Assembly (NCBI GenBank): GCA_973895155.1
Contig: OZ316891.1
Span: forward strand, 16,705,651-16,769,650
Length of the DNA stretch: 64,000 nt
Source of the DNA: Marsupella aquatica
Lineage: Eukaryota; Plantae; Marchantiophyta
Direction of reading: 5' to 3'
The stretch's first letter is position 1. Each line of letters starts with the position of its first letter. The position numbers and the translations under genes were made by a program. A model generated the notes under the pieces. It was not told the DNA's origin. It ran no database searches and was given only the letters and a program-made list of their open reading frames with translations. This document shows, in pieces, positions 665-37,246 of the stretch.

Positions 665-3600
665 TCAGTCCCCATCATCTGCAAGGACTGATGGCATTAA
701 GCCCTTCCCTTGCCGAGGGAAAATTGGAATGACAATGGACCATCCTCTCATGGTGTGCATCGGAACCATAATGCACTGATCCACCTGGCTAGGAAAAACT
801 ATGGTGTCACTAAACTCAGTCCCTGTGGGTGCAACTCGGGTTGTGTCCACGCGATAAAAACCACACTCATCCGCAACCATCGTAGCTCTCGCTGGAGGTG
901 ACATGATCGACTTGTGCCACCTCACCTCTAATACAGTGGTGACAAATGACCCAAAATGAACATCTGAATTGTCCACAACTGTCCCACAATAAGGAACCTC
1001 TACATCATCTACATCAGTCATCATGAAGATTCCAGAGTTACAAGTACTCTTCTTCATATGGTCCGTCCTCCAAGTCCGAAAGTGGTGCCCTGACTCATAC
1101 ATGTGTGTATGAGTCGTGGCCCACATCCCTGGCCCCCTAATGATGTTTTGTACATCAATGGGAATGGATGTAGGCCCATGCAGAGCCAAGAGCCTGTCCA
1201 TGCGCTCCAAAGCCCAGACACAAAAAATGATGCAATGCCACGACCTGTTTGCGCAACTCCCACTTGAAGCTCCAACCATGCACTGCCAAATATGTTGTCA
1301 CAAGATTGTTAGAGATTTGCAGCCTTCTCAAATCCAAATCCAAATCACAATCTCATACAATTTTAGAGTACCATACCTATACATCTCCCTCCAATCAGAC
1401 ATCTCCGGTCGATTGCCCAACACATAATTATGGATCTGTCGATGGAAGATGTCATCATCCAATGATTGCTTCTTGGCCGCACCCATCAATTGCAACCCAC
1501 CATTGTCATCATCTTGTGCCTCTTCCCAAGTCATGGGAGCCACGCTGTCCAAACTCCCTATCACCCCCAAGAATAGAAATTAAAGACACTCTGACATAAT
1601 GAACCCTGTTGCCATACTTCCCTCAGGGCGAGCTGGTTGACGCACCCAACCCTTGAGCACCTTCATATATTGCTCAATCCAATACATCCACCGGGCATGG
1701 ACTGGGCCCGCAATGGCAACTTTATCCACTAGGTGACATAGCAAGTGCATTTGCATGTCAAATAGTACATGTTGGGGGGAACACTCGCTCCAAATTGCAC
1801 ATCACTTGCGCCGTCCTCTCCCTCATCAAAGGAATGTCAGACTCCTTGATCTCCTTGCCACATACCCACCTACGAGGCACTCAAAAACATTCCAGGAATA
1901 AATATCTCAACCCAACCAATTGTGGGCTAAGATGGTTACCAATTCAATGCCTAAGCTTATTGATCTCCCTCTACCTAAGATATTCCTAATAACGTCGTTC
2001 TTTAAGACGTTCTGAAAGGTGGGTTCCTAGACGACGTTCTTTACGTCGTATGTGACGTAGTATTGTGATATTACCTAGTCAAGAGAGACGTAAATTATTA
2101 AGAGACAACGTATCTTTTACTAGAATGTCGTTTGAGACACCATAAATTTATGTTCCCATAACACCACAAAATCAAACTCTAAGATAATTCCAACCTGAAA
2201 ATGGAGCACAACTCGTACACTATGAGTCGGAGTAGGCGGCGCTCTCTAGAATCATCGCAACAACACAACACTGTAGGGAGCACATGCTGTATCAACTTGT
2301 GATAATCATGGGACTTCAACCCTATCGGGGGGATGTACTCATTCCTCGTTGTGCACCCACGGAATCCAGCTCCGTAATGGCTTGGGAACTTCATCTCACA
2401 AATCATCCCATTCACATCCTTCAGAATGTCTCGAGGCAAAATCCAAGGGGCTGGTGGTGTCACCCCATTACGTGTTGTCCAAGAAAGAGAATCAACTTGT
2501 TAGGGTTTGGGGTTTCAGGCAATTAATTGCATAATAATACACAATATCCTGGGAAATTCTTACAAATCCAGGGCTGATGTTTTCTCATGTACCTGATATC
2601 CAACAGCTCTTCACAACTCCTACATTTTTTGCATCCACTCGAACTCCACGAGTATCATTCTCACCATACATGTACTTCACCAAATTCTTTGCGACCACTT
2701 CAATGTGCATGGGGTCCAGTAGCCACCGGATCTTGAGCATCTGCTTGCACAACATGGTAATAAAGTGGAAAACTCTAGCATTCTGAGAGTTGATGAAAAA
2801 AACTATACACAATGATAGGCTTATTGTACCTACCCTCCAATAAGGCAAGTCCCACAATGCTGATCGTCGGTTTACTCCACAATCTTTGGGTTTGAGCAGC
2901 TTAGCCTCCACCATCTCTGCCATTTGAATTTGAGCTTTTGTTGAAGGCACATTAGGACATGGTCTCAACTCAGTCTGTGCCCAATGTCTTGTGTTCCATC
3001 GCATGGGGTCATCCATTGATAATCTCATCGTGCTGCCCTCATATGTGGTTTTGTGCAATAGTACTGAGTACCTCCCATGCAACTCAGGGCCACATGAAGG
3101 GCAACCTGAGTAACCAGCCACCTTCAAGCCTGATATTGTGCCCATGCCTGCCAAAGAAACCCCGTCATATTTCCGCAATAAAAGAAGCCAAATGTTCTAC
3201 ATAAAGTGATTTAGCACAATATAATTACATTTTGGTTGCTTTTCAAATTACCTGGCCCATCAGTGGTGCAATGGGTGATCATGACTCTCATGTTGAATGT
3301 CCTCCCATTGTCCAGTGCACGGGGGACATCTATTGTTGGGGCCCCATTTTCCCACAAGTCATGTAGCTCTTCATAAGCTGGGGCCAAGCAAACATCTGGA
3401 TTCTTGCAAGCCTCGGGACCGGGAATGATAGCTAGGAGGAGAACATGACCCTTTTTCATCGCCAACCATGGAGGGATGTTTTGATTTATCAAAAGAACTG
3501 GCCACATGGACTTTGGCTTCCGTCGCTACTTGTATGGGTTTACCCCATCTATTGCCAACCCCAATCAAACGTTCCATGGCTCTGCCGCAAACTTTGGCCA

Positions 3601-3757
3601 TGTGGCATCAATGTGCTTCCATGCTGGACTATCTTGGTGATATCGCATTATCCCTGTTGGGGATTTGGTCTTGGCATGCCAAGTCTGTAGGGAGGATAGG
3701 TGTCTTCGCCAGTACAGATGCTGCAATCGGGGTGTGATTGGAAAATACCTCAGTACC
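665..3757 (-). pseudogene. CACTA transposase (TnpD/Transposase_21, DUF4218- and DUF4216-like), downstream exons; frameshifted
   Basis: Motifs LRYFPITPRLQHLY, DSPAWKHID, WPVLLINQNIPPW, LLDPMHIE, GLKSHDYHKLIQH and HLVDKVAIAGPVHARWMYWIEQYMKVLKGWVRQPARPEGSMA (~1600-1760), separated by GT-AG introns. Confidence 0.9.
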
Positions 3758-3804
3758 TGAATGGAAGACAACCATGAGGAATAATTCATCGTTAACATAA
3801 AAAA

Positions 3805-3928
3805 TACGTTCACCAGAACTATGTTCACCAGAACTACGTTCCCCAAACATATACATTGTTCAAGATGACGTATTAACTATATGTTGACCATAACTACGTT
3901 CCCTAAATATATACGTTGTTCAGGACGA
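3805..3928. repeat. ~60-bp intronic minisatellite, left part; continues at 15283-15345
   Basis: Unit gatgacgtattaactatatgttgaccataactacgttccctaaatatatacgttgttca occurs at 3864-3922 and again, nearly identical, at 15286-15344. Confidence 0.85.
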
Positions 3929-4162
3929 GGGGAATTTACAAACGACAGCAAACAGATAACAGTAACAGCAAACAGTTACTGTTATCAGCTAAAAGAAACT
4001 GTTACCAATGAACAGTGTTTGGGTAGCAGTGAACACTGATCATGAAAAAAGTGGACTAAAGATGCGTTTCAAACTACTGGTATAGAAATGAATACGATCA
4101 AATTCGCATGAAAGGAAATTGGACTAGACGGAATCATGTATTTTACAACAAATAAAACCGTT

Positions 4163-5048
4163 TCACAATTGAGATAAACAAAATCCGAGACCAATATATG
4201 TCAAAATGCACAGGGGAAAAATAAAACTGCCATATACAATCGCAAAGTACATAACACGTTCGGCGCAGGTCCAAAAAATGCCCATATAAGTTACAACCTG
4301 TAGGCCTAGAAATCTGATATACAGAAGCCACGGTAGACCCCGGCTGAGGATTTCCAGTAAAACAAAAGCAGTGTTGGGCGCTAGCCAACAACTGCAGGAA
4401 AAACTACGGAATTCCTGAAGACGACATCCGGGAAAAATCCTAACAACTAAGCCGAGGGCGACTCCATCCTGAAACATCGAAAGAGCTTAAGCAGCGCTCG
4501 GCTCTAGCTTAAAGTGATCACCAAACTGAACAATGTGATGCCGTTCTTCATGAAAAACCGGAGGAACAAGCAATAAGTGATTGCATCTAGCTTTCAGAGT
4601 TGCAATCATCCTCCAATCCTGCCGCTTCTCTCCTCCGATTTTTCTTGAATCCAAGACCACGCAATCGAATGTATCTCTCAGAAGGACCCCAATGCACTGC
4701 CCTCGTATAACCTTCATTGGGAATGTTACTGTCCTCAAAGTCAACTCGCCCAAACATTTCTTGAACTTTCCTATCGATTGGCAGTACACCATCAATAGGA
4801 ACAGCCTGATGAGACGAGAACGTGCTTGCAAATGGGAGCGGAGGAGAATCGACGATCCATGGGATGTTCTTTTCTCCAGGACTAATAGCTTCATCATACG
4901 GTAGAGCGTGACGGTTCCGAAAAGTAGAGGTTTCAGTTTCCTCAGTCTCCATCCGTGACTTAAAAGAACTGAAATGGCTCTCTTCCGGACGCACACGAGA
5001 AGGGAGGAACGTTGCCTCCCAATCCATGAGCTCACCGTTTGTCTCCAT
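4163..5048 (-). pseudogene. Possible third, degenerate cargo ORF of unknown function in the MULE
   Basis: Overlapping minus-strand ORFs 4587-5240, 4487-5035 and 4163-4477 can be joined across a frameshift and a stop. No domain recognised. Confidence 0.35.
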
Positions 5049-5299
5049 GTTTAATGAATCCAATCTAGTGGCAACTTCCCCTCTGAAAAAATGCAAAAAT
5101 TGTCTGCAAAAGGCCCGCAAAGGTTCGAAAATGGTCGTGGGTCCAAAAGATCTTGTCCGGGAGGAATGTCTCCCTCGAAACACCCGAAATGTATCTCCAG
5201 AAAAGGGGCCGCAACCGGGCGTCTGTCCCAAAATAGTCACCTGTCCAAAAACTTGTCGTCCGTGACAAGTGTCATCCTTGAAAACCGTCGTTTAGGGTT

Positions 5300-5420
5300 T
5301 GATCCTAAAATGTCGTCTGAGAGAGATGCCGCCAACAAGAGATCCTAAAATATCGTGCGAAAAAGCTGTCAACAAGAGATCCGAATGTCATCCAAGAGAT
5401 CCGAAAATGTCGTCCGAATA
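5300..5420. repeat. Short tandem repeat (aagagatccKaaaatRtcgt-like units)
   Basis: gatcctaaaatgtcgtc / gatcctaaaatatcgtg / gatccgaatgtcatcc / gatccgaaaatgtcgtcc in tandem. Confidence 0.7.
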
Positions 5421-5748
5421 TAGCCGATGTGGGTATCTTTGGAAAACTAACGGACCTAAATGAAATGGCCGTTGGTATTCGAAACGTCTATTATACTATG
5501 TATTCACTACTATTTGTCTCATTATGATGACCGTTGGTAGGACACGACAAAGACCAAACGGCCGTGTTACACAAAGAAGAGCTGGAAATATTTACTTTAC
5601 GAATCACCATTTGGCGAGCGCCTGGCGCTTGTAAAAACACAAGGAATCAGACCTTAATTTATCAGGAGTCAATGAGAAGATTTGAATACAACTTGGTACT
5701 AGCGCCAGGCGCTGGTAAAAAATTACTCCCTAAACTCCTCAATACGTG

Positions 5749-8700
5749 TCACAATTCTGCAGATTCTGATTCGGAACCAGAATCTGAACTCTCGGATTTG
5801 TCCGTGGACATAGCCTCATCATCTATGTACTGGCTGCGGGAGAAGTCATCAACATAAGGATGTTTCATGAACTTCCTGTCAACACCCCTTCTTAACCGAA
5901 GACCTTTGTTTTCCCAGCAAAGCGTCCTTGTACCCTAGGCTTTCCTTGCGGCTTTCTCTGCATAGGAGGGAAGAACAAAAGGTTTTTCTGGTGTTTCTAT
6001 GTTGTGTCTAGCAACCCTCCTTCGCAGTTTGAAACGTCTCCTTGCATTCCACTCTGACCTGATCAAACAAAATCCAGCTAGTTAGGAGCCTTTCTCCAAA
6101 ACAACACAAAAATGTTATAAATTGACGGGAATGGAGAAAGAAGCTTACGAGTTTATGAACATTACTCGGAAGAGTCATCACTATCGGTTTCATCAGGAGA
6201 TCAACGAGGTTCTTCCTTTTCCTCCTCCGAGTCCCTTGTACCTTGTTCATCTCCATCTCCACCTTCACTGGACTCATCATCAGAATCAAAATTGAGTACC
6301 TACCAAAGCTTATCTCGCTTCTTTCTGTCGGCAATAGGAACAGGTGGAGGTAAAACCGCAATCTCTTTGGGAGACAACAAATCCATGAAAACCTTCGAAG
6401 TGGTTTCAATAAATTCTTTTCTATGTTCTATCCCGAGCACAAACCTCCCGGAGAAGTCTCCAGCAATGAAGGAGCTTCCAGCCCCAGCGGTCCAATCCAT
6501 AAAAATATCACGAGGTCGGGTGACAAGCTTTATGACAGATTGCATAAACCCAACAGACAGGCGAGCATTTCCAGAAAATTCCATTTGCGGGAATGGATCG
6601 AATTTGAGAGAAGGGAGTCCGATCAAATTGGTGACCGAGGGGTCCTCACTAATGGAGAGTGGACGGAATTTAGGGTCTTTGGGAATTTTGCATTTCCCAT
6701 TAATTCGACCAAATATGTCCAGCCTGAGGGTAAACATCTGCGGAAAGCAATCCCAAGTGTCAGTTGGCAACTCTAGGTTAAACGAGTTATATTTCAAAAT
6801 GCGACATTGTTAAGAGTACATAATTACATGACGGTCTGTCTTTGCCGCGTACATCGGGACAGACATTACAACATTATGCGTGCATATGCACTGAAATTTT
6901 CTCGATTCTTGACAGGCAGCAATGACTTGAGACATGGGATCGTACTCCCCATTGTGTAGAATTGCTAGGAATCCATCATCTGATAGAAATGGATCCATGG
7001 ACTTGAAAAAAGATCTAGCCATGGAGTGATCTGGAGTGTTCCATTTAGGAACCTTCTTATCTATGATCGTTGGTTTGAACCCGGTCGGTAGGTAAATGAA
7101 ACCGGCATCCACTCCAAACGATCTTTCTTTTCCTCCCAGCACAACACCCTTCTCTTTATATCCCGACTTAACGAGATCCTTCCCCCACTGCTCCACATTA
7201 CTAACCCAATCAGGTTTTTCCCCCTTGTTGAAAGTCGAGTCAAAAAATTTGGACATGCTTGTCTCAACCATGGCATGATGAGACACTCTAGTTTTGAAGT
7301 TTCCAACTTCACGTTGGACACCGGATGCTGCAACACTCTCCCTTGAAGAAGGTCCACCTTGGATAGCTCGCTTTCGTTTCTTCTTGGTACTTGTGGCGTC
7401 GACCGGAACTATTACTTTCCCCTTGTCGACAGGAGTAATGGGGTCCGATCAGGCTCCGGTGTTTGCCTCAGAAACTTCAGGTGTAGCATCCACTTTAGTA
7501 TCTCCTGTTCCCGCTATATTAGACTTCCTCCCTCCTAAATTATCAATAGGTCCTAGTTAGAACAAGTAAATCCGGAGTATTGAAACAAGCTAGCGCCAGG
7601 CGCTAACCAAATAAAAATCACTTAGGTCTCAACAAAGGCCTAAGAATCTAGAAAGAAATGTGAATTCGAATGACAGTTCTACCCAGCGCCAGGCGCTGGC
7701 CAAACCACGGAACATTATACTCACTTTTCCTCCCAGATTTTGTTGACTCGCTTGGTGCTGCTAACTCCGCTTTTGCTTTCACTTGAGGTTTTCGACTTCA
7801 GTCCACATGAACAATAGTCGTTTCACAGATACTTTGCAAGTCTATCACAGACTTGTCTACATCGTCTATCAGGCCCTGCTTCATGTCCGACACAATTTTT
7901 GCTGGTATGTGGGACTTTGAAAGCTTGTGGAATGCATCTTTCTCCCTTTGATCAAAAGGAGAATCCCATCTATCTGTATCTAGATACCATGGGCAGTGAG
8001 TTCTCTCCCATTATGTCATAGGTCTCGGAGTAAATATGCCCTCCGCTGGGTACATGGAGTACAAATCAGCTATGGCGTCATCCTCACTTATTGTAATCCA
8101 CTTCATGAAAGCTGCAGGATATGCCCAGAAGTAATTAGGTTTGGTTACCTCCATGTGCATGTAGAACCTGTAAAGATACCTTTTAGCCCGCTTCTGGTTT
8201 TTCTGGGTGTAGTCTTCTTTGTCTGGATACTTTGAAGGCCACATCGTGTGAAAGAACTTACTCTTCACAGAATCACCATATCTCTTGAATTCATTTGTAA
8301 CAAACTGAATGAGATCATCAAACGAACCACAATTCCACTCTTCTAATCTAGTTGCGGGCATCGTCTACTCTACTTCACGCAGACATGAATGTAACATGTC
8401 GACAGCAATTCCCTCTACACTATTCCAAGTGATCCAAGTATGACACCATTGTTTGACTGGGTCGTCGTTAACACTTGCCGGGTGGAAAAACTGTCTCCAC
8501 AGCTCAGGATTGCAATCTGCCACAAGTAGGGTGCTTTCCAACTTTGGGTCTAGGGCAGAAACAGCAGTGAACAATCGGGTGCGGTCCATTGTACATACGA
8601 CGGCGTCAGGCTTCTTCTCTCTCTTGTTTCCTCTGTGACAGCATACATTTCTGCACATGTACTAAGAAAATCTTCAATTTAAGACTTAACAAGGGCGTAA

Positions 8701-9954
8701 TTTTTGAGGACTTCACTGCACAGTCTTTGGTTGCGTCCTTCATCATGGCCGCATGGCGTTTGGACATCTCGCCCACCGACCAGGGACTCCCTTGAGCCTC
8801 GGCTGCCTCCATGTCAAGCTTGAATTAGTGAGAATATGACTTTATCTTATTCTCACATAAAATGTAAACAAGAGGTTCCTGTGGCATCTTCTTTGTATAC
8901 CATGACCCCTTCCGAATGCTCTCAAACTTCTTGAAATTAGCTGGATCAATCAGTTTACTGTAATACTCAAGGTCATGCGCCAGAATTTGTTTGATTCTAT
9001 CTGCATCGAGAATCCAGGATGGCTCAACAACGGCTTGGCCAAGCCTACACAAAGAGATGCAGCGAGTTAGAGTCGAAGTACAATTTATGTATAACCAGCG
9101 TCGAGCGCTCTTAAATAGAACACTCGCAAGATTCAAAGAAGGTACCTGAAAAGAACGAGAACTTACTAATTCACGGTGTGCATAGCTATCTCGATTTCAA
9201 TAACAGATCCCTTGTCTCCCTTAAATATTGTGCAGAGCACTCGAGGATGGTATTTTGGATTGTCAAGATTCTCCTCGGTAACAAGTGTCCATGACTACAG
9301 CCTGTGATTTCCATCAAAGACAGAGAACATCTTATCCTTCAGCACGAGAAAATTTGGATCGGCCTCGCATTCTGCCTCAAACTTCTCGTTCTCCAATTGC
9401 CAAATTGGATCCCATGATTGACGAATTTCCTGGGTATAGGTCAGAACAATTCCATTCTCATCCGTTGGCTGCACATAGAAACGCATTCCTATGGAGGAAT
9501 TGTAACCCATACTGCGAAACGAGTCTTTCAGCTTCTCGATGGAAGAGCTATCTTTCTGCAAAGTACGAACCACCTCCATGTGAACCAATCGGCATAGAGG
9601 GATTCGAGGCGGCTCCTTGTCAAATCCACGAGAATCCTTTCCAAAACACATGACATGTTTTGAGATGAGATCAGTCTCCAGGAGTGCGCAGACCGAAATA
9701 TTTTGGATCGCAATCGTGTCAAGGTTCTCCATCTTTCTACGTAGAGATTTAGGAACCAAAACAACGCTAACAGAAGTAGGAGGCAGCAGCTTTGTGGAAC
9801 GAGTTACACGACATGTATAAACTGAAGCAGTAAACGAAGACTGCGAGGATTCAGAATAAGCTTGCTCTTGGTCAGGAGCAGCACTATACCCTCTGGATGA
9901 AGAGGGGAATACCTCCATCATCTTCCTTCCAGAAGCGTACGAACTATCGTACAA
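5749..9954 (-). pseudogene. Multi-exon ParB/Srx-like domain + beta-class N4/N6 DNA methyltransferase-like (PF01555-like) protein; several premature stops
   Basis: N-terminus IPLCRLVHMEVVR...IEKLKDSF...FSVFDGNHRL*SW. C-terminal part VDAGFIYLPTG (motif IV position), FLSDDGFLAIL, FMQSVIKLVTRPRDIFMDWTAGAGSSFIAGDFSGRFVLGIE (motifs X-I-II), then an acidic/basic tail. Approximate introns 9045-9166, 7554-7724, 6738-6827 and 6059-6165. Confidence 0.75.
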
Positions 9955-10192
9955 TGAAATTATGGAACTCTAATCAACTCTCAACGTGTAATATATTCTA
10001 GAAGGAGGGTGGAGTTCAACGGAACTCTTCGATTAAAGCGAGAAGCTCATAAGTTTGGCGGATTCCAACGTATGTATGCAGAGAACTTAATTAGCAAAAT
10101 CAAGCGATAGAAGAAGCATAACACACACGGAACTCATAAGTTACCGTTAAATGTTACCGTTATGACCGTTTTCTTCCCTCACTCGGAATACT

Positions 10193-10603
10193 AGTGCCGG
10201 GCACTATTATAAACAAGTTCCCGTGAAGTAGATAATTTGGATGATTGTCATGGCAGCGCCCGGCGCTAGTAAACATAACAGCTATAGAATAGGTTTGAAA
10301 TGGTGTCTCCAGTAAATAAATTTTGTGAAAACAACCCCATATTTGAAGAAATGTTTAATGTTTTAATGGTTTTTGGGAAACATTACTTGCATCCTATACT
10401 AGCGCCCGGCGCTAGTGATAACGGGTATTTTTCATCCATAGTTTTAAAATAATTCACATTTTCATTGATCATTTAAATCAAATTATTCTATAGTATTGAT
10501 GGATATCTGGAGGGTTTTTCGTATACTAGCGCCTGGCGCTAGTATGAAATATCGAGATTTGGGGCATATTATGTTTGAGATATTTTAGTTAGCGCCAGGC
10601 GCT
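10193..10603. promoter_or_regulatory. Cluster of five AGCGCCNGGCGCT palindromes in the divergent intergenic region
   Basis: Copies start at 10193 (AGTGCCGGGCACT), 10255, 10401, 10528 and 10591. The 10528 copy extends to the 23-bp ATACTAGCGCCTGGCGCTAGTAT. Regulatory role is inferred. Confidence 0.65.
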
Positions 10604-10881
10604 ACTCAAATTGTTCCAACTATACAATATCTTAGAGTCTGTTAAAGATTTTTGTGGTGTCTTTTTTGGCATTATGTACGTGTCTGACATCCGGACTTAT
10701 CGGGGAAAAACAACAAAATTCATTTATGGCGCCAACGGATCCTATATCGACTATGTTTTATGTCTTACACAAATGCATATGTTAACGTGAAGTTCCCATG
10801 TTCGACTGATATAAGCTCCATATTACCATAGACTTTTCTTCCTCGAAACATTACAGTCCTCGTTATTTGTTTTCGATTGCA

Positions 10882-13800
10882 ATGTCTCGGTCCATCGTTC
10901 TATCCCGATTCGGGACTAGGGATATTGTGACCATCCCCGTCCCTGTGGAAGACACGTACAAGCAGGTCCGGGAGAGATACCTTTGCGGTAGATTTGATTT
11001 GAAGATGAATGATATTGAGGCCATTCTTCGAGAGCTTGAAACCAGTGATGACATCAAAGATGCAGCAACATTCAATGTGGATGATGCTGAATGGTTTTGG
11101 CATCTATACGCGGGGATTTCGTACTCACTTCGAGTAAGACACCATGAAGGACCGTCCAGTGTCCCCCAAGATCCATTTGATGTTGTTGAGATTTCTTCTA
11201 GTGAAGATGGGGATCACACTCCAAGTCCTACGTTGAAAATGAAAGTCCTGCAATGTGCTGTCGTTAAAGGTGAGACTCCAGGAAGCTCCAACCAGTTGGA
11301 GGTCGTGTATCGGTGCAGTGCAATGGATACGTTACTCAAATCCACTGGTCATAGCGAGTTATCGAGGTTCATATCAGCGGGTGATTTCAGACATGAGCAA
11401 GTCTCCTGTCTGCCAACTAAGTATAATAGGAACGTCGTGTTTGAATTGCCACCAATTGACAAGATGCTCTCTAAAGGCTCTAGGCTTAGGGACATGGACC
11501 GTGCCAAAGATTGCTACATTTGGACACGCATATTTCCAACTACGGCGAACGTCCAGCCAAAAAACTTTTGGCAATTTGGTAAGGTTACCTGTACGGGATT
11601 CATTGAATGTCGAAACAAGTCCTGCGAGTACTTCCAAAGGAAGAAGAAGGCAAATGCTAAGGCATGGCAAGGTACTCCAAAGCTTAGTGGTCAGTATGTT
11701 GTCGGATCTTTTATCAAAGAGGGCGGTGTTGTGTGTCATTATTGTGATCAGATTCCTTTTTGTGTCAAGTATTGCCTTGCCCATTTGTTCTATATGTACC
11801 CGCAAGTATTACTTGATGCGGAAACATGTAGTCATATGTCCCGCCTGGCGATTCATATAGGTGAGCATAACCATCCAGGTAGAAAAACCTTATGTAGGAG
11901 TGCGGAGAAGATGGTTGAGGATTTAATTAAAAAAATCATGAAGCCAATCCTCTGGCAAAACCAGTTGGGATCTTGAATTCTGCTACAGGGTCCATAGTGA
12001 AAGCTCTCTGCGAACATGTTGACGACATAGTCGATATCGAAGAAACTGAAATATGGAAGTCTTTGATGGTACTTTCCACTCCCCAAAAGTTTGCATCTCT
12101 TTGTCGGAGCGTTAGGATAGACCAAAAGGGTCGGGGTGAACTTGATTTTCTCTCGCAAATGCAAAAGAAGATTAACCTGTTGTTTCTCCAGAGGTATTTT
12201 CTCCCGGGTCAGGGAATTCAAGAGGACAGGCCTCACATCTTTAAATTGACCACAAAGGATCACGGTTCCGGTGTGGATCTTTTGAGACAGATGCAACCTG
12301 GTGGAAGACTCGAAGGAGCCTGGGTCAGTTTTGATGTGATGCAGCGTATCACAACCGATTGGTTTACTTTTAGCGCGCATGTCTACGACCATAACTTCCG
12401 TGCACTTTGTACAATTTTCACATGCGAGTTGAAAGGTGAAGACACTTAGTCTTTCGAAAAGGCTTGGAGAGTTATGATTGAGGTTTGCAAGGAGAATGGA
12501 TTACATGAGGTTGTCATCCAAGGGTTTATGGCGGACAATGCACAAGCTGGATGGAATGTTGTGCGGAATGTTTTTTTCGGTGGACACCCAGACCTGGAGA
12601 GGGAGCGCTCTGATGCATTTCACTTTTATCAATCTTTCCATCGGCATTCCAAGGAAGGAGTACTCGAAGAATGTCAATCGGAACATCGAAGACCTTGGGA
12701 GAAACTAAGAAACGCTCCAACGTTTGTGGTAGCCTATCGCGTGTCCCGAGAGATTGTGGTTTGGTGGCAATCAGGAAATTGTGTCCCTGGAAAGCTCATG
12801 ATGCTACAAAGCTGGATATCCTGGTGGGTTGTTCGATGGCGCCAATGGGGAAATTTTATTCGAGTGGTATGACATCCATCTCCTCTCTTGTCTTTCATTT
12901 CCATCAACTTTATTAGCGCCAGGCGCTCGTATGATTTGCTCGTATTTGAGTCCAACATGTCCATAAAGTTCCAGAATCATACTTGCAATTGTATTTCACG
13001 TATGTTATAAATACTTGTCGGTGTCAGCGCCAGGCGCTGGTAATACAATGCTAGTACTGATTATTGCATTTGGACTATGGCAGAGCAAAAGCGCAGAAGA
13101 AGGTGCCTTGATTCCGAACTGTACAGGGTCAGAATCAAGGCATGCGTCTATGAAAGCTTGGGCTACAAAGAAAAAAGTTGGACTTTTTTAAGCATGCAAA
13201 GTGGACCAAAACCGAGCCCTATCTCAAGTTGCGGGATACAGTGCATATCAAAAAGGGTTGAACAGAGGAAAGGGACCGACTATATGGGAATTGGCGTTCC
13301 GTTCCGCCGATCAAGCAGGTTCGCCGAGGTTATTTGAAGATGTGACCAACATGCTTCTTTCAAACGCGACGGACTTCGATTTGGAAAGAAGTACTCCCCT
13401 TAACAGAGATATCGTGACCAAGTCAATGAAGAGAAAGGGACATGCAACTGGGACTGCCTCTCCACAAGACTCCCACCGGTGACACCGTTCTCATAACCAC
13501 ACCAAATACTCGTGGTTTGAAAAGGAAAAACCTAAACAGAACTGACTTTGCCTCCATTCCCTCAAATTCTAATGATCCTGTGACAAGAGTGGTGAATCTC
13601 TCTGGTATGGACACACCAGATGGTGATACTGATTCACTGGACAATACCCCTCAAACAACCCGTACAACAAGATCCACAAAACCTCCGCTCAGTGCACTAG
13701 CCTCACTTCAGAATCCACTTCCACGGACGATTGTGCTAGAAAAGGATGTCCCTCTGGGGCAGTGGCAGTTGCGACGGACGTCCAAGTATGGAGCAGGTCC

Positions 13801-14614
13801 CTAGTGTAATGGGACACTCAATGGGAGTTCTGATCGCGATGAGTGTCGAAATCGTATCAAGAAGGTTGGCTCCCATTCGTCTGACGGTGTTGTTGGAATT
13901 GTCGTGAAGGGCCATCGTCTCTTCAGGGGCGAACCGATCTCCGGAATGATTTGGTTCTGCCCAAACCAAACCTGTTATAAGGGTTGTCCGCGTCGTGGTG
14001 TTCATCAGCTTCCTCCTCTTCCTAAAATTTTGCCTGTTCTGAATGGTACGAGCCTATCTCCTTCTGAAATCACGTTCCTCGAAGAGCAAGGACTTGTCTT
14101 AGCCCAAACAACAGGATTGAGTCGATCTGCGCCATCTTCGTTTGACCTCAGGATAAATGTGAACGTGTTCCCAGAAATGATAAGGTTTTTGGAGCCAAAT
14201 GTCCGGCTGGGTAGTCGGAATGAGAGGAACTCAAGACCTCGGTCTAATCTCATTGTGGGTCACACTAAGCGAATGGAGTCTGCACGACAAGAAGAGATGA
14301 GTTTGGATGGGGAATGGAATGTTTGGACTAGAAATGCTTTTGGAAAACAATTTCAAATTCGAACCCATGAGAACTTTCGATCACCAAACACGTACTTCGT
14401 GCAAATCTGTATCTTCCCTGCTTGCTCATGTGAGGACTTCTTCCTACGACATTCGCGTGGCAAGTCGTACATGCCTTGTAAACATCTATACTGGGTGTAC
14501 ATAAATGTTTTCAAACTTGAGGTTGAGGAGTCGACTCTTTGTAGCCAACCAATTTTGACTGTGGGCGAAGTCAGGCTTGTCTTGGAGAGGCAGAACTTGA
14601 ATGGCTTACAATAG
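10882..14614 (+). pseudogene. MULE-like DDE transposase with N-terminal GCM/WRKY-like zinc-binding domain and C-terminal SWIM finger; frameshift and stops
   Basis: CTGFIECRNKSC...CHYC...C...IHIGEHNHP; VSFDVMQR; FMADNAQAGWNVVRNVF; DAFHFYQS; intron ~12868-13083; PNCTGSESRHASM...GKGP; SWIM CSCEDF...PCKH. Frameshift in the A-run near 11930 and TAG at 12447. Confidence 0.8.
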
Positions 14615-15542
14615 GGGTCGAAACTTCCGTATAGGTCGTTCAATATAACGGATAGTCACTATTTTGTCTTTACCCAATGGATATGTTACTTGTTTTATTC
14701 AAAGATTTTTGGTTAGCGTCGGGCGCTGCTTCCAAAAATCTTATTTTTCTTGCTTTTTTATGTATGCGTGTAGTGTAAGCATTACAACATGTTTTATTGA
14801 AAATGTGTAAGTTGATATCATTCTGTTTTTATCTTTCAAGCCGCATTTATTCAATTATTCTGAAATAAATCGTTAGGTGGTGTTTTGTCATTTGTTTGTC
14901 ACGGTACTCGGTCCATTTAAGTGAACTCATTTTGATTGAGTTCATTTGGACACTACTCTTCACTTGTTTTGTGGTGGGTCCCACCCTAAGGTTCACTTTT
15001 TAGCTTGGACGAATAGTGATATTTGAATGAATGTTTCATTGAGTATAGTCCCCATACCATGTTATTTATATACCCTAAATAATTATTTGTTTTAAACCTA
15101 ATTCACTAAAGAAAAATTATGTGATTAGCGTAGTTTTTCATTCGGACCAAAGGGCTATGGTTGATGCAAAATTGGGAACAGGGAATCGCTTACTGGTAAC
15201 AGTTAAATTTGACTGTTAACAGCAAAAAAATTCCTGGTAACAGGTTTTCTGTTTTCTGTTTTCTATCATGGCTATCATACCCTAGGATGACGTATTAACT
15301 CTATGTTGACCAAAACTACGTTCCCTAAACATATACGTTGTTCAAGAAGACATTTAAAAAATGTACGTCATCTGCAAAGACGTAAAATTCAAGTGGGAGT
15401 CGTTTAGGGTGTTTACATCGTGTTGTAAGACGTACATATCATGAGGGCAATGTTAACGGACACAAAACGCCGTAAGGTACGACAAAAAATAGTAAGATGG
15501 GAGGTTGTGTATGTGGACATGTGACAGAGAGGATGTCATTAC

Positions 15543-16345
15543 CTTCTCAGCAATCTTGTCTCCAATGGTATCAGGACGATACCGTGGAAGGCCACATCGC
15601 TCAATCAGGCAATGGGTGTGGTCCAAGTATGTCCCTCTATACAAGATGCACCCAGCAGGGCACATATGTATAGTCTCTAAAGCCAATCCGATAGAAGATA
15701 ACAACTTCTTAGCCTCTCTCACACAACCTGGAAGGTTGTTAGGTTGGGGCAAGATTTTGTTGTGGAACAACGCAAAGAGTGCATCTGTATGGACATCTGA
15801 TCCATTGAAAACCCCCTGTAAATTTAACATCAAGAGTGTGGCTCCCAACCTGCATTTGCATTGAAAACCACAAAGAAACCACCTTTTTAATTAGTTCCAG
15901 GCATGCCATTGAGTATGGTCCAATTGGGAACTTACGGGTTTATGCACACCCTTAAGCAACATTACAATAGAAAAACTATAATGGAATGATTGGATTGTAC
16001 CGTGAGGTCGGGGAACCCTGGAATAGCGGAGTCCTGGATTTTGTTTCCAGTTGGTCCCAATCATCTTCGTCTAGTTCCATGATAGGAGGGCCATCCTCAG
16101 GTACATGAGGTCCAAAGTGGATGTGCACAAGGTGCGCAAAAGCATCCTCTACATCTTCATCAAAATTGCCATCATGTGCATCATGGTACTCATCCACATC
16201 CTTGTCCACATCCTCGTCCTCATGCACATGATCACTCTCAACATCTTTGTCGTCAGAAAAAGATAATGTGGCTCGCATGTGGAATGCACGGGCTAACTCC
16301 GTCATCATCGATGGATGAGGTGTAGGTGTTATATTTGGACCATCC
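15543..16345 (-). pseudogene. CACTA transposase upstream exons
   Basis: ILPQPNNLPGCVREAKKLLSSIGLALETIHMCPAGCILY...CGLPRY...IAEK joins in frame to VLRYFP at 3757. The acidic exon 16000-16345 ends SRTPLFQGSPTSR. Confidence 0.85.
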
Positions 16346-16488
16346 TATGCAAGTAATCAATATTAGATAACGTAATCTCCAAATTAGACAATGTGTTCCC
16401 AATACTGCATGGGGTAATGAAGGTCAAAGAATGCAATATAAGTCTCACTCCGTGTAATGAATAAGTGATCAATGAACATATACAATCT

Positions 16489-17972
16489 TCAATGCCAATC
16501 ATAGTCTACAAAAATCTCATCCCCAGCTCGAATGGTGTGGGTGGATGTGTCACGATGTAGTGACTGCATCCCACGGGCAAACGAGGGTGACTCTGGTCAT
16601 GGTACTCGTGCCACTCAGCATTGGGGCGAAACCCCAAACGCCGACACCCCACTGTGCTATTGATATAACCCGCCAAGTTTCCAGTACGAGGTGGGTAACC
16701 ATCCATCTAAGTATACCTAGGGTCCAACTTTAGTGACATGCCATACCGACCAAAGGTTGGGCATTGGCAAGACAAGATACGCCATCTTTGTCGCGAATAC
16801 TTGGCCCATAAAATGCAATCAACTCAGGTAGGTCCTCAGGTGCACAACCTTCCGGCACCACAATATCCACAAGTGCAAATAATCCAAGACCTACGTCTGG
16901 TCCCAATGTAGATGGGAGGAGGACCCATGGCCTATCCCAAACTACAATAGGCTCCCGAACAAGCAGGACCATAGGGAGGCCAAACTGGGTTGGGAATGAG
17001 TCCTTTATGATGTCCAAGGCTCTCCCTCTTAACTCTCTTGGTGCTCGGGAAAAAGAGGCATCAAGAAAAGGACAGTGTGGCGGCACCATCCTAGGGGTAC
17101 GAGACGTAATGGACCAAGGTCTAGTGGTGACCTCTACTCCCCTCTCAATAGGGTGATTGCGTATGACCCTCCTCCTATCAAAAACATGGTCTATTGCCCT
17201 AAAAGTGGCATGGAGTGCTAATGGGGGAACTAGTGCTGTGAGCGCGTGACGTGCAACCTGTCTCATGTGGTCCAAGGGCGGAGAGACAACACACAAAATC
17301 TGTTTCACATGCGAACAGGAGAACTTCAGAAATCAGGGAAGAAACCTTTCCAACTAAACACTCAAGAAACACAAGAAACCCAAACATGTCTGCAATAAAA
17401 ATAAGGACTTAATGAATTGAATAGTGTCAATAAAGGTTTATAAATTACCTGATGTGTCGGGGTACGTAACGGCCGTGGAGGCCTAAATGGCTAAGGACAG
17501 TGGTCCTCTTGTGGGAGACGACGCCCTTGCATCTACTACATGGGCAGGGCATCTTTTGGACTGGGCCAATCCCTTGAAGGGCAGCCATGGCCTCTCCAAA
17601 CCTGTCCTCATCCTCCGGCATGGGTGATCGGTGTTGTAATGTCTGGTCATCAGAGGGAGACCTGGACCGGCGGTGGCGGTGGGAGTGTCGATGGGAGCTC
17701 CTATGTCTTTGTCGCTCCCGATGGTGTCAATGTCAATGATCCCTAGATCGGTACTCCCTATCTGGCGACTGATCCCAACTCCTCTCAGACGAATGGTGCC
17801 TGCTCCTATCAGATGATAAGTCCCTCCTCTCGCGTGAGTGGTATCTCGACCTCACAGGTGAGTGCTCCCTCCTCCTCTCCCTCCCCCTATCATGAGAACG
17901 GTACTTGACTTGGTGCTGTGTACCTCCATCATAGCGGTCATCAGATGACCACTCCGATGAATACGAGGCCAT
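16489..17972 (-). pseudogene. SET-domain protein gene inside the CACTA element, with an RS/RE-rich first exon; frameshifted
   Basis: PSTLGPDVGLGLFALVDI...FYG; YLDGYPPRTGNLAGYINS...PNAEW; after a frameshift, THTIRAGDEIFVDYDW (~16490-16540). Probable intron ~17390-17448. Confidence 0.75.
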
Positions 17973-19393
17973 GGTCTGCAATAGTACACAGTCACACATA
18001 TACACACAAACTTGCAAACTCAGCCTTGGAAATGGAACATCGGGACCACTACAGTACTAAATAATTTACATCAAGCAATACAATGTACTTTTACTTTACA
18101 TTGCCCAAAACACAGAAGACGACGTAACTCTTAAACCCTACGTCATATACCCTACCCCAAACGACGTAAACCCTAAACCCTATATTTTAACGATGTACAT
18201 CACATTGTTAAAACTCAAACGTCGTCTCTTACAACGTTACACTAAGAGATCAATTAGGGTAACATAGCCTTGAACGACGTTAGATTACAGAGAACGGCGG
18301 AAACACATGGTTGCAAACTCTGTCGCATTCTATTTGGAAAATATCGGGGCATAGTGTCGAATGTGAGTCATTCGACCATTCCGCACACACCTCACCCCAT
18401 ATCTAGTTGTAGCAAGGTGATAAAGAAATAAATGACTATTTACTCCTTAACAACTCGATTTCGTTCCCGTTAGGAGTGGATAAGATCAAAAAGACTGAAT
18501 TAACACAATTTGAGAAGTTTACACCAACATTCTTAGGTTGGAGAGATTTCTAATGATCTCCTTAATATAAGTGTTTAACCACAAACTCAAGTGGGTAATC
18601 TTTAGGATTCACAGTGCAATAATAAAGACTAGAATTAACAAAGATTGAAACTAGAGAGAGAGTAGATAGAAAGTTTCAATATGCAAAGGAATTGAATTTC
18701 CGACCATCACCACTCCTTCAATAAGGATTATGGCCTAATTTAAGATTCGGAAATCAACATTTTCTATGCTTTTTGATTTCTCGTAGCAACTCTCATCCAT
18801 CTATTGAATTTAGAAGACATGAACGTAAATCAACCCGAGACACTTTTCTGGTCCTGTTGAGGACGGTACTAGGATACTCGAATTGGCTTACTTCTCCTAC
18901 AATCCTTAAGATTGCTTGTTTGAGTTTTGAGCAAATGCCAATTTCCTCTTTGGTGAATCTTCCATATGTATTGGTCACAAATCTCATTGATCTTCCAATA
19001 TCATTATAGGCACACTCTAGTATTCATTGAACATTTCACAACAACTCAAGGGTTGCTAAACTTCTTCCTTTTACTTAACCATGGTAAAAAGAAGGGGAGA
19101 AAAGGCATAGATTTCTCCAAAATAAAAATGGGGAAATCAAATGTATCTCTCTCCTTTGTTGACTTTGGGTTCTCCTCCGTTTGTACTAAAAGTGGAGATT
19201 ATGAAAAGACATGCCTCTTCAAAACCCAAGTCTAAAGAAATATGTAAATAAAAGTGAACTATCCTAGTCAAAAATGGAGTAGAGTCCCCAATGGATACAT
19301 CAACAAAATACTGGAGTCTACTTACTCATATAGTAATCTATATAGCTATTTCTAAGTCTAAACTAATGTGACTCTAACTCTCTAAATATAACT

Positions 19394-20131
19394 CTATTCT
19401 GGTCCTAGCTTTTGGGAAGGAACCTCTTCAGGGTTAGCCATGGCAAGGGGTTCTGGTCGAAGGAAAACTCCCTGCTGACCAGTGGTAAAAGGGATGGACG
19501 GGTCAATATCCATGTTCTCCTGATGGGCACTTGGGTCATGAGAATAAGTGTAAGAATGGGAGTGGAAGTGTGTACTGGGAGTGGGGAAACCAGGAGGGTT
19601 GAGGGGTGATGAGGGGCCAGTGGAATAGACTCCTTCATGAGGACTAGGAGAGAAAGATCTGGTAGTAAAGGGAGGAATCTCAGTATCAGCTAATAGCTCC
19701 TCAGTAGTCAAGTCACTCATCTCCCTTAAGGCTTCACAGGTCTTTGAGAGGCCTGTAAGTGCATCATCCACCTTGGTACTCACATCTACCACTAAATGGT
19801 TAATCTTGGAGAAAAGGATGGGTGTGGTGTTCTTAGCCAAATACTCATCATAAATTTGGGCCTTAAGAAGATCCAGAGAAGCTATCTTGGTCAAAGGCTC
19901 AATCAGATCCAAAGATTGAGTGATACTGAGTTGGAGAGTATGCTCAAGCTCATTCTTCTTCTTACTCCTTTCCAATTGCTGTTTGAGTTCAGATACCTTC
20001 TTCTTGAGAAACTCATTCTCCTTCTCTAACTTCCTCTTTTCTGTGGTATCACTCATGGTGGAGATTTTCTCAAGAATCTGCCCTGGTTTCACTCCTAACT
20101 TTTGAGAAATGTCAGTGATGGCCTTCTCCAT
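19394..20131 (-). CDS. TE-associated coiled-coil protein
   Basis: ~245-aa open frame with heptad-like KRKLEKENEFLKKKVSELKQQLE. Its ATG overlaps the upstream stop (TGATG). Confidence 0.55.
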   Translation of the reverse strand: MEKAITDISQKLGVKPGQILEKISTMSDTTEKRKLEKENEFLKKKVSELKQQLERSKKKNELEHTLQLSITQSLDLIEPLTKIASLDLLKAQIYDEYLAKNTTPILFSKINHLVVDVSTKVDDALTGLSKTCEALREMSDLTTEELLADTEIPPFTTRSFSPSPHEGVYSTGPSSPLNPPGFPTPSTHFHSHSYTYSHDPSAHQENMDIDPSIPFTTGQQGVFLRPEPLAMANPEEVPSQKLGPE

Positions 20132-21135
20132 CACAGTGGTCTCCTCTTCACCTTCTGGAATGTGTCTGAGATGATCCGGAAATCAGCTAGGGTGTCTAGG
20201 GAGGCATGGCCGGGTGCATCCGGAAATTCATCCGGGTCGACGAAGGCCGGGTCGGAAAAGTCCGGGTCGAGATTCCGGGCAGCAGACCGGGTCTTTCGAG
20301 GATTTGTCTCTACTGGCTCCTCATCCTCACTGTCATCAGAGGTGGCCTGGGTGATATCTGGATCTGTCTCTCCATACTTTATGAAGTTGAACTTGGCCAA
20401 TAGTAATTTCTTCTCCTCTCTGAACAAAACTCCTTCAAAGCTATATAGATGTACCAGGTAGCAGGAGAGGGGAGTAGGACTCTTGTTGGATAGGTTCTGT
20501 ACCAACTTCCTTATCAAATCAAAGATAAGCTTAGCCCAGTTGACTTTTCTTTCTCCCTTGTAAGCAGCAACAATGGTAGAGTCAACTCCAACAGTAACTC
20601 TTCTTGGCTTCTCAGGGTACAGCAGGGGTAGCAGAAAGCTGAAGACTCGTCTCAGATCAGGATCCAAACACTTAGAAACATTGAACCCGTCCTTACTGTT
20701 GATGGCTCCTTTGAAGTAAGGGAGGATTAGATTGACAGCTCTCCCCACTGGACCTTCTCCTTCATCTTTCAATACAAAAGCTCCTGCAATCATCATCTGA
20801 GTCCATCGCTCAGGTCGGCCTCTAGAGGTATCCTTAAACTCAGCCGAATACTCCTTGGATTGGATCTCTCTAATCATATCTTCGCTCTGATAACTCCAGG
20901 GTAGCTCCATCAGAGACTCACAGCCCATCCTGAGCAAAGACTCCCTCAGTTCGACCTTCTCAGCTTCACTGTCCGGAATAGCTGGCCTCAGAATTTTCAT
21001 GGCAATAGGGACCTCCTTTCTCTTCGATCGTCTCACAGGGGCTTTAACCGGAGTAGGTGCAGGTGATGTTGAGGTTGAATGCCCCTTAGAGACGCGAGAA
21101 GTGGACATTCCGGCTGGATCCGCCCCTTGCTCCAT
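20131..21135 (-). CDS. TE-associated protein of unknown function (possibly plant-mobile-domain-like)
   Basis: Open frame 20131-21225 with likely start MEQGAD. Motifs GCESLMELPWS, FKGAINSKDGFNVSKC, LLYPEKPRRVT, VNWAKLI, PTPLSCYLVHLY. Confidence 0.6.
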   Translation of the reverse strand: MEQGADPAGMSTSRVSKGHSTSTSPAPTPVKAPVRRSKRKEVPIAMKILRPAIPDSEAEKVELRESLLRMGCESLMELPWSYQSEDMIREIQSKEYSAEFKDTSRGRPERWTQMMIAGAFVLKDEGEGPVGRAVNLILPYFKGAINSKDGFNVSKCLDPDLRRVFSFLLPLLYPEKPRRVTVGVDSTIVAAYKGERKVNWAKLIFDLIRKLVQNLSNKSPTPLSCYLVHLYSFEGVLFREEKKLLLAKFNFIKYGETDPDITQATSDDSEDEEPVETNPRKTRSAARNLDPDFSDPAFVDPDEFPDAPGHASLDTLADFRIISDTFQKVKRRPL

Positions 21136-22077
21136 AGGATTTCTGGAAGCAGAAAATTGATTTCTGGTAAATATTCTGCCTCCTCTACGACAAGCTCTAC
21201 AATGATGCGACTTTAGAATGTTCAATCTCTTCGATGTCGACCACTGGTAAAAATGTCCGGGTCGACCTGGCCGCAGCGTTTCTGATCAACTGAAAATCGT
21301 TTTGGAAGAATTGCATCAAGATTTCGTCAACCACAATGCAGGGTCATCTAACGTGGGGAAAATCTAGACTCAATCTGGCCTGAAATGGTGATGTCCGGGT
21401 CAACCTGGCCTCCATTCTCACAAACGATGTATCCACTATCAGGATCTCAAACTTCCTGCCTTCACTTCCAGCGGTGGAGTAGGCATTCCCCTCACAACGA
21501 ATCAGTCAGTACCCTCATATCCAGGCTCTCATCATGCAATGCAAGATTGGTCCTATAATCCGGACCCAAGATCCTCTACCACAAGGGTAGAGCCTCCTCA
21601 CTCTACTGCTTAAATAGCCTAATGCGCTCGGGAGCTCAAAACCTACTAAGTTCGGCTTTGAGAGGTGTGAGAGGCCGAATTGACTCTCCTTCCTTATATC
21701 TGAATTCTGTTGTGGTCGTGCCTGTGTTTGACTTATGGTTCTAAAAACTTTGGCAATGAACAGTTGTTGTGAGTAGAGTCTCGGTATAAGCTCTATATCT
21801 CATTCCAGGCTTATAGTAAAAAGTTCTGGATCGATCCTCCTTTTCTAATATCAATCTGGTTGACCTCAGATCAGCTTGAAAGTCTCATAACACTTCAAAG
21901 TAGTCTTCAAGTCCCTCTTCAGCCTCATTTGAGATCTTAAACGTAAAAATTCTAAAATTTATGGTTAGTTAACCCTTCTTTTATAAACATCCTTATCTCA
22001 CACTAGTGTTTAGTTGTGCTCTACTGTAGCTCTACTCTTTCTCAAGGTCATCTACATTCGCTCCAAGTCTAGCCTCA

Positions 22078-24289
22078 ATGCCACATCCAGCTTATCTGCC
22101 TCTCAATATCAACTTTGATGCTGTGAAAGTGTCCATGGAAGACCCAGAGGAGGTGGAGAGGGTTCAAATAGCTTTGCGGTCAACTCATTCATTGGTTGAT
22201 GCTTTCAATCAGAGTTGGAAATTCATGGGAGGAACTGGGACAAAGGAGTCACAATTTTTGGAATACCTTTAGAACATAGAAGAGAACGCTCCGGCATCAG
22301 ATATTGAGCCCGACATTCAAGCTGCGGAGTTTGTGGGGACCTTGGGGGGCATCAGTTGATCCTCTTCCTTCCTTCTCGTCCTTACTGGATGACGTGTGGG
22401 ACGATCCCTCGTTCCCTGGGATGGAGCCGGATTCACAACCACCCTCTGTTACTCCCATCAAGAGCCAAGTGAGGATTTAGAGATATGAGCCTGACGATGA
22501 TAGCAGAGAGTTAAGGACACACAGAAGGCGACATTGTTCCCATTCTTTGAGTAGCAATAGTAGCATTGAGAGGAGACAAAAGAAGGGGAAGGGAAAGGAG
22601 CGCAGAGAGAGAGACAGCAACAACAAACACAAGAGAAAAAGGGCTGATAGAGATTCAAGGGTGGACAGAGATAGGAGAGGTCAAAGGTCACCTCGACATT
22701 CACATTCAATGGGAGGAGGTCATCGGCAAGCTTCTCCTCAGCAAACCGTTGCTACTCCTGCCAGCAAAGAACAACTGTCGGTAATCAGCCTAGCTGCTTT
22801 TGATGCAAAGCCAGAGGTGCTTGATGAGAAGGCACTAACAAATTGAGTGCAGGTCTGTTGTACGAAACACTTCCCCGGGTGGACGACTTGGAAGGACCTG
22901 GTGCACAATACAAAGAAGTTTCAAGTACTCCTCAATGACATAGAGGCCGGATTCAAGAATGACAGAGAGATTGATTTTTGACACATCAGGCAGAAGATTG
23001 TGAGTTTCCTTGCTGACAAAAGATTCAGGTGGAGAAGCAAGGTCCGAGCAATGAAATGCAAGCAAACAGGGCAGTACCGTAAGCCTGAAGGGATGACTGA
23101 GTCGGACTTCAATTTGATAGTGTCTGAACTTGAAGCACCCCCAAACACCCTAGTAGGAAAACGAGTGCACATGGGTGACAAAGCCACTGCAGCTTGAAAG
23201 AATAGCGGACGCCTTCTAATAACCAATTTTTGGGGCCGGGCAAGGAGGATGGCGAGGGTTCCTCACAACCTATGTAAGTCTCAGACCCAACTTCCATGTT
23301 TTCATTTGGCTGCTCCGGTGTAAACCATAGTCTAACGTCATGCTTTGAAATTACGTCGCCTGATCCCTTAATAACGTCGCCCACAACAACGTTAACTTCA
23401 CTTTACAACTTATCCTGAGACGTACTTTACTCTTAATATTGTTATAGCGACGTTACATATACCCTAAATCTCTAAACGTCGTTAGAGCAACGTTACAGCA
23501 ACGTAAAATAGTTTAGCAATGCATGAAACGACGTTAATATCTATCTCGACAGGGTTCAATACGTACTGTCATATGACGTTCTTTGGTTTCTCGCAGAAAC
23601 ACAAGTTTGGAGTCGATGCCGAGCCATTGGAGGAGGAGCGACTGTACTCAAAACAGTACGGCCCGACAGTGCTATGGGCCAAGTTGGCCTCAGTCCCAAA
23701 GGATCACCGGGTAAGAGCTAAAGTGAATGCTAGGTTGTAGGTGACTTTAGGCCTACTTTGTGGACATGAACTGACCGGAATGCTATCATGCAGGTGGAGG
23801 ATTGGACTCCTCCGGAGGGCTTGGTGGCACGGCCCATCCCTGAGGATCACTTGCCAGCCAGGGTACTGCACGTGGAGGGTTTGCAGGAGGAGGCCCTAGT
23901 AGATTGCGGGCATGAAGGCCAGGCGACAGGCTAGGTCTTCTCGTGATCTATTCCCTGAGGCAGAGGATCATAGGGGGCATACTAGTGGCCAAGGCCGGAG
24001 GGAGAGAGAGAGAGCCAAGGGAGGGAGAGAGAGGGAGAGAGGGAGAGATAAGTCAGATAGACGGAGGGAGAGGAGGAGGAGGAGTGGTTTAGGGAGTGAT
24101 GGCACTACGGGACCTCCACACACGAAGGGGAGTAGGCCAATGACTACTCATAGGGCTGCGACACAGGCATATATGTTGTCCCCCACTACGACTAGCTTAG
24201 AGGAGGATGTCACCAGGTACGAGTTGCGCCCAAGAGGCGTACAACCCAGTTCTACACGGAGGTCTGGACGTGATACCAGCCAGACTTAG
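22078..24289 (+). pseudogene. Probable CACTA TnpA-like second gene, multi-exon and degenerate
   Basis: Divergent from the transposase inside the element. Segment WTTWKDL...FLADKRFRWRSK...RKPEGMTESDFNLIV resembles TnpA/Ptta-type proteins. ACGT-rich intron ~23275-23596. Confidence 0.5.
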
Positions 24290-37193: not shown

Positions 37194-37246
37194 CATATTC
37201 CAAGGAAAATTGACATTTCCTTCCCGCCAATGAAGGAATGAGTCCC

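Follow-up and report, generated by a model that had tools for sequence, protein, structure and literature searches.

A SET-domain exon is nested inside the transposase (TnpD) gene of a CACTA transposon in the window studied here, the whole stretch of 64,000 nucleotides analysed from the liverwort Marsupella aquatica (contig OZ316891.1). The SET domain of this family is real, and the copy in the window is a pseudogene from which no intact SET protein can be encoded, so that it matters only as a pointer to the family. Judged from sequence comparisons, the exon is old, conserved and under selection in a bryophyte CACTA lineage. We regard it as somewhat probable that the CACTA gene makes an accessory protein-lysine methyltransferase, of predicted activity, by alternative splicing. 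SET genes on DNA transposons are already known, and the literature searched gave no report of such an exon within TnpD of a land plant.

The SET exon and its place in the transposase gene

The minus strand carries all three SET motifs of the window copy, spread over three frames in the translation of open reading frames (Table 1). The sequence-only reading had seen these motifs as the signatures of one gene; their presence is confirmed, and a single intact gene is not, as the copy is broken by two frameshifts and one stop. When the intact relative nearest to the window copy (P0001; 55% identity, E 2e-39) served as the tblastn query, the motifs fell into a single gene reaching from 17266 to the stop codon at 16489, with a combined E of 1e-71. 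It is broken by one frameshift near 16800, a second near 16544 and, between them, the stop at 16709-16707. The exon holds an internal Met at 17266 and a SET core at about 16930-16492. None of the three window ORF pieces matched Pfam SET singly. A profile built from the relatives recovered four pieces of one SET gene (E 3e-31 to 2e-5) and no second SET gene within the window. The comparison with PF00856 that had been proposed as a check gave matches among the relatives, 22 of 35 at E≤0.1 and 10 of 35 above the curated cut-off, so the absence of any SET hit, which had been named as grounds for discarding the idea, did not materialise.

Table 1. Coordinates of the transposon features in the window (strand given as minus, or as a dot where none is assigned)
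Feature	Position	Strand	Evidence
Doubtful candidate CACTA-type terminus, CACTATG	18350..18356	-	sequence
Short-motif array of ACGT/ACGAC type, like subterminal repeats	18000..18300	.	motif counts, without shuffle control
First coding exon: Ser/Arg/His-rich stretch, then Transpos_assoc zinc finger (CxCxxC...HxxxH)	17449..17972	-	translation, PF13963
Predicted intron between zinc-finger and SET exons, GT...CAG	17300..17448	-	sequence, GT at 17448; intron-like gap at the matching site in L001-L003
SET exon with its own stop	16489..17299	-	translation, tblastn, profile of relatives, sister copies, fold of P0001
Motif GLGLFA	ORF 17332-16733	-	ORF translation
Motif GNLAGYINS	ORF 16706-16509	-	ORF translation
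Motif IRAGDEIFVDY	ORF 16596-16492	-	ORF translation
Rest of predicted intron before next transposase exon	16345..16488	-	AG acceptor at 16345, phase 0
Transposase exon: acidic stretch and N-terminal part of TnpD; decayed	15543..16344	-	tblastn to Riccia P0021, E 4e-20
Separate 11.35-kb repeated element in next TnpD intron	3929..15282	.	ends GGG...CCC, high depth
Remaining TnpD exons with Transposase_21; decayed	668..3756	-	PF02992; tblastn to P0021, E 1e-34
Similar short-motif arrays in introns	2001-2250, 3751-4000, 15251-15500	.	motif counts, without shuffle control

The exons follow one another in the order zinc finger, SET, acidic stretch and Transposase_21. As the span originally singled out (16489-17972) begins with the Transpos_assoc exon, the SET exon is placed inside the TnpD gene. 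The sequence-only reading had described a gene directly upstream of the transposase; its location together with TnpD was right, and the separate upstream unit is corrected to an exon nested in the transposase gene, dead in this copy. That the SET sequence belongs to a CACTA element is supported by the Transpos_assoc and Transposase_21 exons around it. Transpos_assoc is known from the transposase start in CACTA elements (PMC8978399). The first exon matched PF13963 (Transpos_assoc) with E 2e-4 and 22.1 bits, below the cut-off of 27.7; two metagenome loci, L001 and L002, gave an equally weak match, and the exon aligned to them as well as to the N-termini of the proteins P0020-P0022. It is damaged by two stops near 17735-17727, and one base is probably missing ahead of the donor. 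The Transposase_21 exons sit 11.8 kb past the SET exon, beyond a nested insertion, and matched PF02992 above its cut-off at 3525-3214 (E 4e-20) and more weakly at 3876-3568 and 3196-2588. The Riccia protein P0021 matches the finger, half of the SET part, the start of TnpD and Transposase_21 in the order of the window, joining across the nested element.

The window donor at 17448 is in phase 2 and would be in phase 0 only if this copy had lost one base; over 17171-17509 the sister contigs have one base more, somewhere in that interval. The acceptors of the SET exon and of the acidic exon are both in phase 0 in the window, these acceptors having been picked by eye and phase-0 AG being common by chance.

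The element ends, which in a CACTA transposon would be CACTA/CAC terminal inverted repeats beside a 3-bp target duplication, were not found within the window. The terminus listed in Table 1 is doubtful because a copy-specific contig from run X3 ends at 18374, so that a neighbouring high-depth repeat may start near 18345, a position derived from the word length of 31. The opposite end of the element meets an LTR-like piece near 350-600 and then the window edge. A motif array similar to those of the window also lies upstream of the gene in L002.

Relatives, sister copies and selection

An exhaustive protein search returned 35 relatives and a later profile search 75; a word-index search with a 200-aa ORF returned none. 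A species name is attached to 20 of the 75, all of them liverworts: 16 are from Riccia sorocarpa and 4 from Calypogeia fissa, species of two different liverwort classes. These named relatives, together with the land-plant MARCHF6/SUD1 gene of the window, are the basis for calling the lineage bryophyte. The zinc-finger exon, GT donor, intron and SET exon recur in all three unrelated metagenome loci (L001-L003) at 39-45% identity, and the acidic exon follows the SET exon in L002, the sole locus long enough. Donors are in phase 0 in 3/3 loci, and the acceptors picked are in phase 0 in the window and in 3/3 loci. L002 and L003 carry stops in or near the SET exon.

A CxCxxC finger stands ahead of the SET part in 9 of the 124 proteins fetched, namely eight Riccia gene models and P0020, which holds finger and SET in one protein and comes from a 2.1-kb Logan contig. 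P0021, a Riccia gene model, joins the finger, half a SET, the acidic stretch and Transposase_21; the Riccia proteins are gene models that may be mis-joined. Long SET-TnpD fusions (878-2505 aa) were not found among the proteins, which is weak evidence, and a putative SET-TnpD read-through product is suggested by the gene model P0021 alone.

No relatives were present among 26 and 3 pattern matches in viral contigs, and prokaryote genomes gave one marginal 34-residue match among 24 (E 3e-4). Six shorter and more distant SET proteins (P0116-P0121, 130-211 aa) share GNIAGYINS, and the four of them kept in the tree form a branch of their own; the tree was built without a host SET outgroup and without the window copy, and is read for internal clades only. 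No close host-type SET gene was among the matches of the relatives' search.

Contigs covering the SET exon were recovered from four public runs, which represent two organism labels and two studies, with 80, 185, 51 and 55 records. With 51-185 contigs per run and Riccia relatives spread over 7 different contigs, this is a dispersed multi-copy family. In the sister copies the stop at 16709-16707 reads Gln in 97-100% of depth in 4/4 runs, and at 16544 they have the base that the window lacks in 67-100% of depth, again in 4/4 runs. At 16800 the lost base is seen in the sole contig listed there, from run X3 (1/4 runs, the other three having no row). An assembly error behind the 16544 frameshift was considered and rejected: a low-depth contig (depth 19) identical to the window over 16440-16604 spans it, so the frameshift is real DNA, the run that holds this contig being possibly the window's own source. 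Contigs of other copies cease matching at 16489-16485, where they have loose ends, several of them at the SET stop codon itself.

The differences between the window and its sister copies are enriched in synonymous changes, with 18 of 38 in the SET exon (26% expected, p 0.004) and 16 of 30 in the SET core (p 0.001); the counts are a selected sample, drawn from the 40 best-supported of 92 rows, with 38 of these 40 falling in the exon. A dN/dS below one had been suggested as a check, and it was obtained in the sole unsaturated pair, L001 and L003 (dN 0.20, dS 0.54, dN/dS about 0.37), whereas the other eight comparisons gave dN of 0.39-0.65 with dS of at least 1.7 or saturated.

A fragment of a host SET gene, carried passively and of no function for the element, would also account for a dead copy such as that of the window, and CACTA elements often capture gene fragments (PMC8978399). 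We consider this very improbable and largely refuted, as the whole domain is kept at a fixed position through divergence deep enough to saturate synonymous sites, dN is well below dS, the family occurs in two liverwort classes with intact sister copies, and no close host-type SET gene was among the matches. A one-off capture, which the earlier reading itself had set as its counter-case, likewise does not agree with 75 relatives, the same layout in 3/3 loci and the synonymous excess.

Predicted protein, its proposed mode of expression and its alternatives

The AlphaFold model was made for the intact relative P0001 from 29 sequences, with a mean pLDDT of 78 and about 90 in the core. Foldseek returned 247 PDB chains at E≤0.001, and all those listed were SET proteins or a Set2 complex. 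The lead was LegAS4 (E 1e-6, 21% identity), with NSD3, MLL1, NSD1 and SET7/9 within about tenfold. Viral fold matches were generic SET matches, and we claim neither a viral nor a bacterial origin; the first Atlas match was a Streptophyta SET cluster (0.97). The substrate class cannot be read from the fold, because the listed PDB matches have only 15-21% identity and different classes are mixed among them.

For conservation, 63 cores of median identity 41% were kept from the 124 proteins after 30 short and 31 redundant ones had been dropped. The two GxG residues are present in 62 and 62 of them, the Asn of the NH motif in 60 and the terminal Tyr in 56 (5 gaps), and in 62 a Ser replaces the His of that NH motif. 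This His is not strictly required, since it is also absent in LegAS4. The alignment position 153 of P0001, which by its place in the alignment matches the usual active-site Tyr of EYxG, is Tyr in 33 and Phe in 29 of the 63, and Phe in the window copy; a Tyr/Phe change at that site alters the degree of methylation in EZH2 and SET7/9. The histone methyltransferases of the SUVH, ASH/ATX and E(z) types carry pre-SET and post-SET cysteine clusters or reader domains. The lack of a post-SET Cys cluster remarked on earlier holds for the family, as 0/63 dereplicated relatives carry one. Neither a reader domain nor PF01555 DNA methylase was matched in the Pfam scans of 35 and 22 SET relatives.

LegAS4/RomA (PDB 5czy, 8swi, 8sr6) is the best PDB match in both sequence and fold, and shares R-x-G-N-x-x-x-Y-I-N without the His as well as N-A-E-aromatic. 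At 21% identity and a profile E of 0.014 it is barely ahead of NSD, MLL1 and SET7/9. RomA methylates H3K14 and needs its ankyrin repeats for activity (PMC10653858), whereas such repeats are absent from the SET protein of the window family. We claim from this likeness neither a shared origin nor a shared H3K14 substrate.

In the mechanism that we propose, the zinc-finger exon would splice either to the SET exon, giving a short zinc-finger-SET product, or past it to the acidic exon, giving the transposase. We infer two such splice forms because the donor is in phase 0 in 3/3 loci and both downstream acceptors are in phase 0, and also because the finger precedes the SET part in 9/124 proteins. 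The zinc-finger-SET protein would bind SAM and transfer methyl to a lysine, with histone tails as the most likely target; it may reach the element through the shared zinc finger or through the transposase, and it may help the element to stay transcribed or mobile. The fuller form of this proposal, close to the idea of the sequence-only reading that a histone writer carried by the transposon could act on its own chromatin, is a self-targeted enzyme made as a transposase splice form, in which a finger-guided compact SET would place a chromatin mark against host silencing, in the role of TnpA in flowering plants. It is a tentative suggestion that we hold with considerable doubt.

Five relatives (P0001, P0004, P0067, P0069 and P0071) start at about Met 17266, some 12 codons into the exon, as would be expected if a separate small SET gene with its own promoter lay in the transposase intron and its product were not fused to the finger; some Arabidopsis En/Spm families do have TnpA and TnpD as separate genes (PMC13547354). 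However, gene callers that take no account of introns are the probable source of such starts, and only about 150 bases separate the zinc-finger and SET exons. The ORFs of P0006, P0066, P0068, P0073 and P0079 begin with a short run of hydrophobic residues closed by a Gln, which by eye resembles the translated T-rich end of an intron with its CAG, and P0020 holds finger and SET in one protein. We hold a separate gene to be unlikely. For the spliced accessory enzyme, the target may lie elsewhere than in chromatin, for instance in the element's transposase or in a host silencing protein. The fold is compact and has no cysteine clusters of the pre-SET or post-SET kind, which fits SET7/9 as well as it fits histone enzymes; SET7/9 is among the listed matches with TAF10 and ER peptides, and no reader domain is attached to the SET part; nevertheless the listed fold matches are mostly histone enzymes, and the Arg-rich stretches seen before the core in the alignment would suit a nuclear protein, so we give a non-chromatin target a small probability.

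Equally small is the chance that the protein is a non-catalytic binder or decoy that holds histone tails, SAM or a SET-enzyme partner and so blunts silencing. The Ser in place of His in 62/63 cores and the Phe at the usual EYxG Tyr in 29/63 would agree with a loss of catalysis, but at a median identity of 41% the cores still retain GxG, the Arg-x-x-Asn stretch, the Asn and the terminal Tyr, and the active RomA lacks the His too.

The accessory methyltransferase proposed here can be set beside known systems. SET genes on DNA transposons are known in algae, oomycetes and others, with predicted activity. Within the same superfamily there is PAG2 of the red algal Plavaka elements (EnSpm/CACTA), also a SET on a DNA transposon and a proposed modulator of its transcription (bioRxiv 10.1101/2025.02.11.637652). 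PAG2 is a separate gene, one of a cassette of three, in which SET is fused to an N6-adenine DNA methylase, whereas here SET is an exon of a plant-type Transposase_21 gene without a methylase; the weak PF01555 match of the window at 6303-6809 belongs to the nested element and not to the SET family. HarbingerS, Phytophthora MuDR families and Helitrons also hold SET lysine methyltransferase genes (PMC12730594, bioRxiv 10.1101/2025.02.11.637652), which we compare by description; they are accessory genes of other superfamilies, in contrast to an exon of the transposase gene. The En/Spm elements of flowering plants have, as is proposed for the family here, one transcription unit that is alternatively spliced into transposase and an accessory regulator (PMC13547354). 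Their accessory TnpA is a DNA-binding protein reported to be restricted to flowering plants (bioRxiv 10.64898/2026.08.24.746577), where the present family has SET, and their known added domains, Transposase_24 and Peptidase_C48, lie downstream (PMC8978399), whereas the SET exon lies upstream of Transposase_21. VANC of VANDAL elements, an anti-silencing protein that acts on the epigenetic state of its own element as is proposed here, differs in belonging to the MuDR superfamily, in having no SET and in acting through loss of DNA methylation, which is experimentally shown there, while the SET activity is predicted (PMC12730594, bioRxiv 10.1101/2025.02.11.637652). The angiosperm CACTA domain survey lists no SET-type domain, its main text being without the word SET (PMC8978399), and the main text of bioRxiv 10.64898/2026.08.24.746577 is without 'SET domain', 'bryophyte' and 'moss'. 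The literature searched gave no report of a SET exon in a land-plant CACTA/TnpD gene, although Repbase Reports, subscription journals and supplements could hold one.

If the self-targeted histone writer is true, it would be the first such with a testable self-targeting route in land plants. An enzyme active on histones would mean that an element writes chromatin marks and does not only erase or evade them. It would also reveal how self-regulation works in CACTA elements outside flowering plants. The family offers a small, conserved, plant-encoded SET example, and its intact copies occur in liverworts, a group with available chromatin tools.

The nested element and neighbouring sequences

The 11.35-kb element inside the TnpD intron is flanked on both sides by the intron repeat unit, and the parts of TnpD on either side connect as they do in P0021. 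Its right junction is spanned by a contig (an X4 record) that matches the window exactly. Its 8-base flanks are similar, with 2/8 bases differing and a comparison confounded by the intron's own repeat unit, and it contains dispersed palindromes of the AGCGCCAGGCGCT type. A minus-strand ORF at 6809-6303 gave a weak DNA methylase match (PF01555 E 8e-4; PDB DpnA E 6e-4), and a long decayed gene on the plus strand at 10810-14614 looks SWIM-type by eye, with no such Pfam match. The element is possibly KDZ- or MULE-like with a beta-class DNA methyltransferase. A second fragment of the methylase-bearing element, 66% identical and in the opposite orientation, lies at 38197-39197 (PF01555 E 6e-4).

Beyond the candidate terminus, a decayed plus-strand gene at 22146-24289 is TnpA-like by eye, and 0/4 of its pieces match Pfam. 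It is followed by the same motif arrays, and the stretch 22146-25048 ends in GTG adjoining Ty3 reverse-transcriptase sequence. Two readings fit this stretch: the 3' half of a different CACTA, or a divergent arm of the present element, split off by a retroelement piece at about 18345-22000. The decayed Ty3 element at 25049-33100 (RNase H, integrase) is itself split by an insertion at about 28550-32530, and a Cys-rich, PHD-like stretch near 32920-33065 seems by eye to form its end. A LINE ORF2 (RVT_1, zf-RVT) occupies 33655-36978 and is followed by an inverted repeat with 38-base arms at 37242-37330. Amid this transposon-rich DNA, an intact-looking host gene for a land-plant MARCHF6/SUD1-type E3 ligase is present at 40680-46852 (PF23113 E 9e-21).
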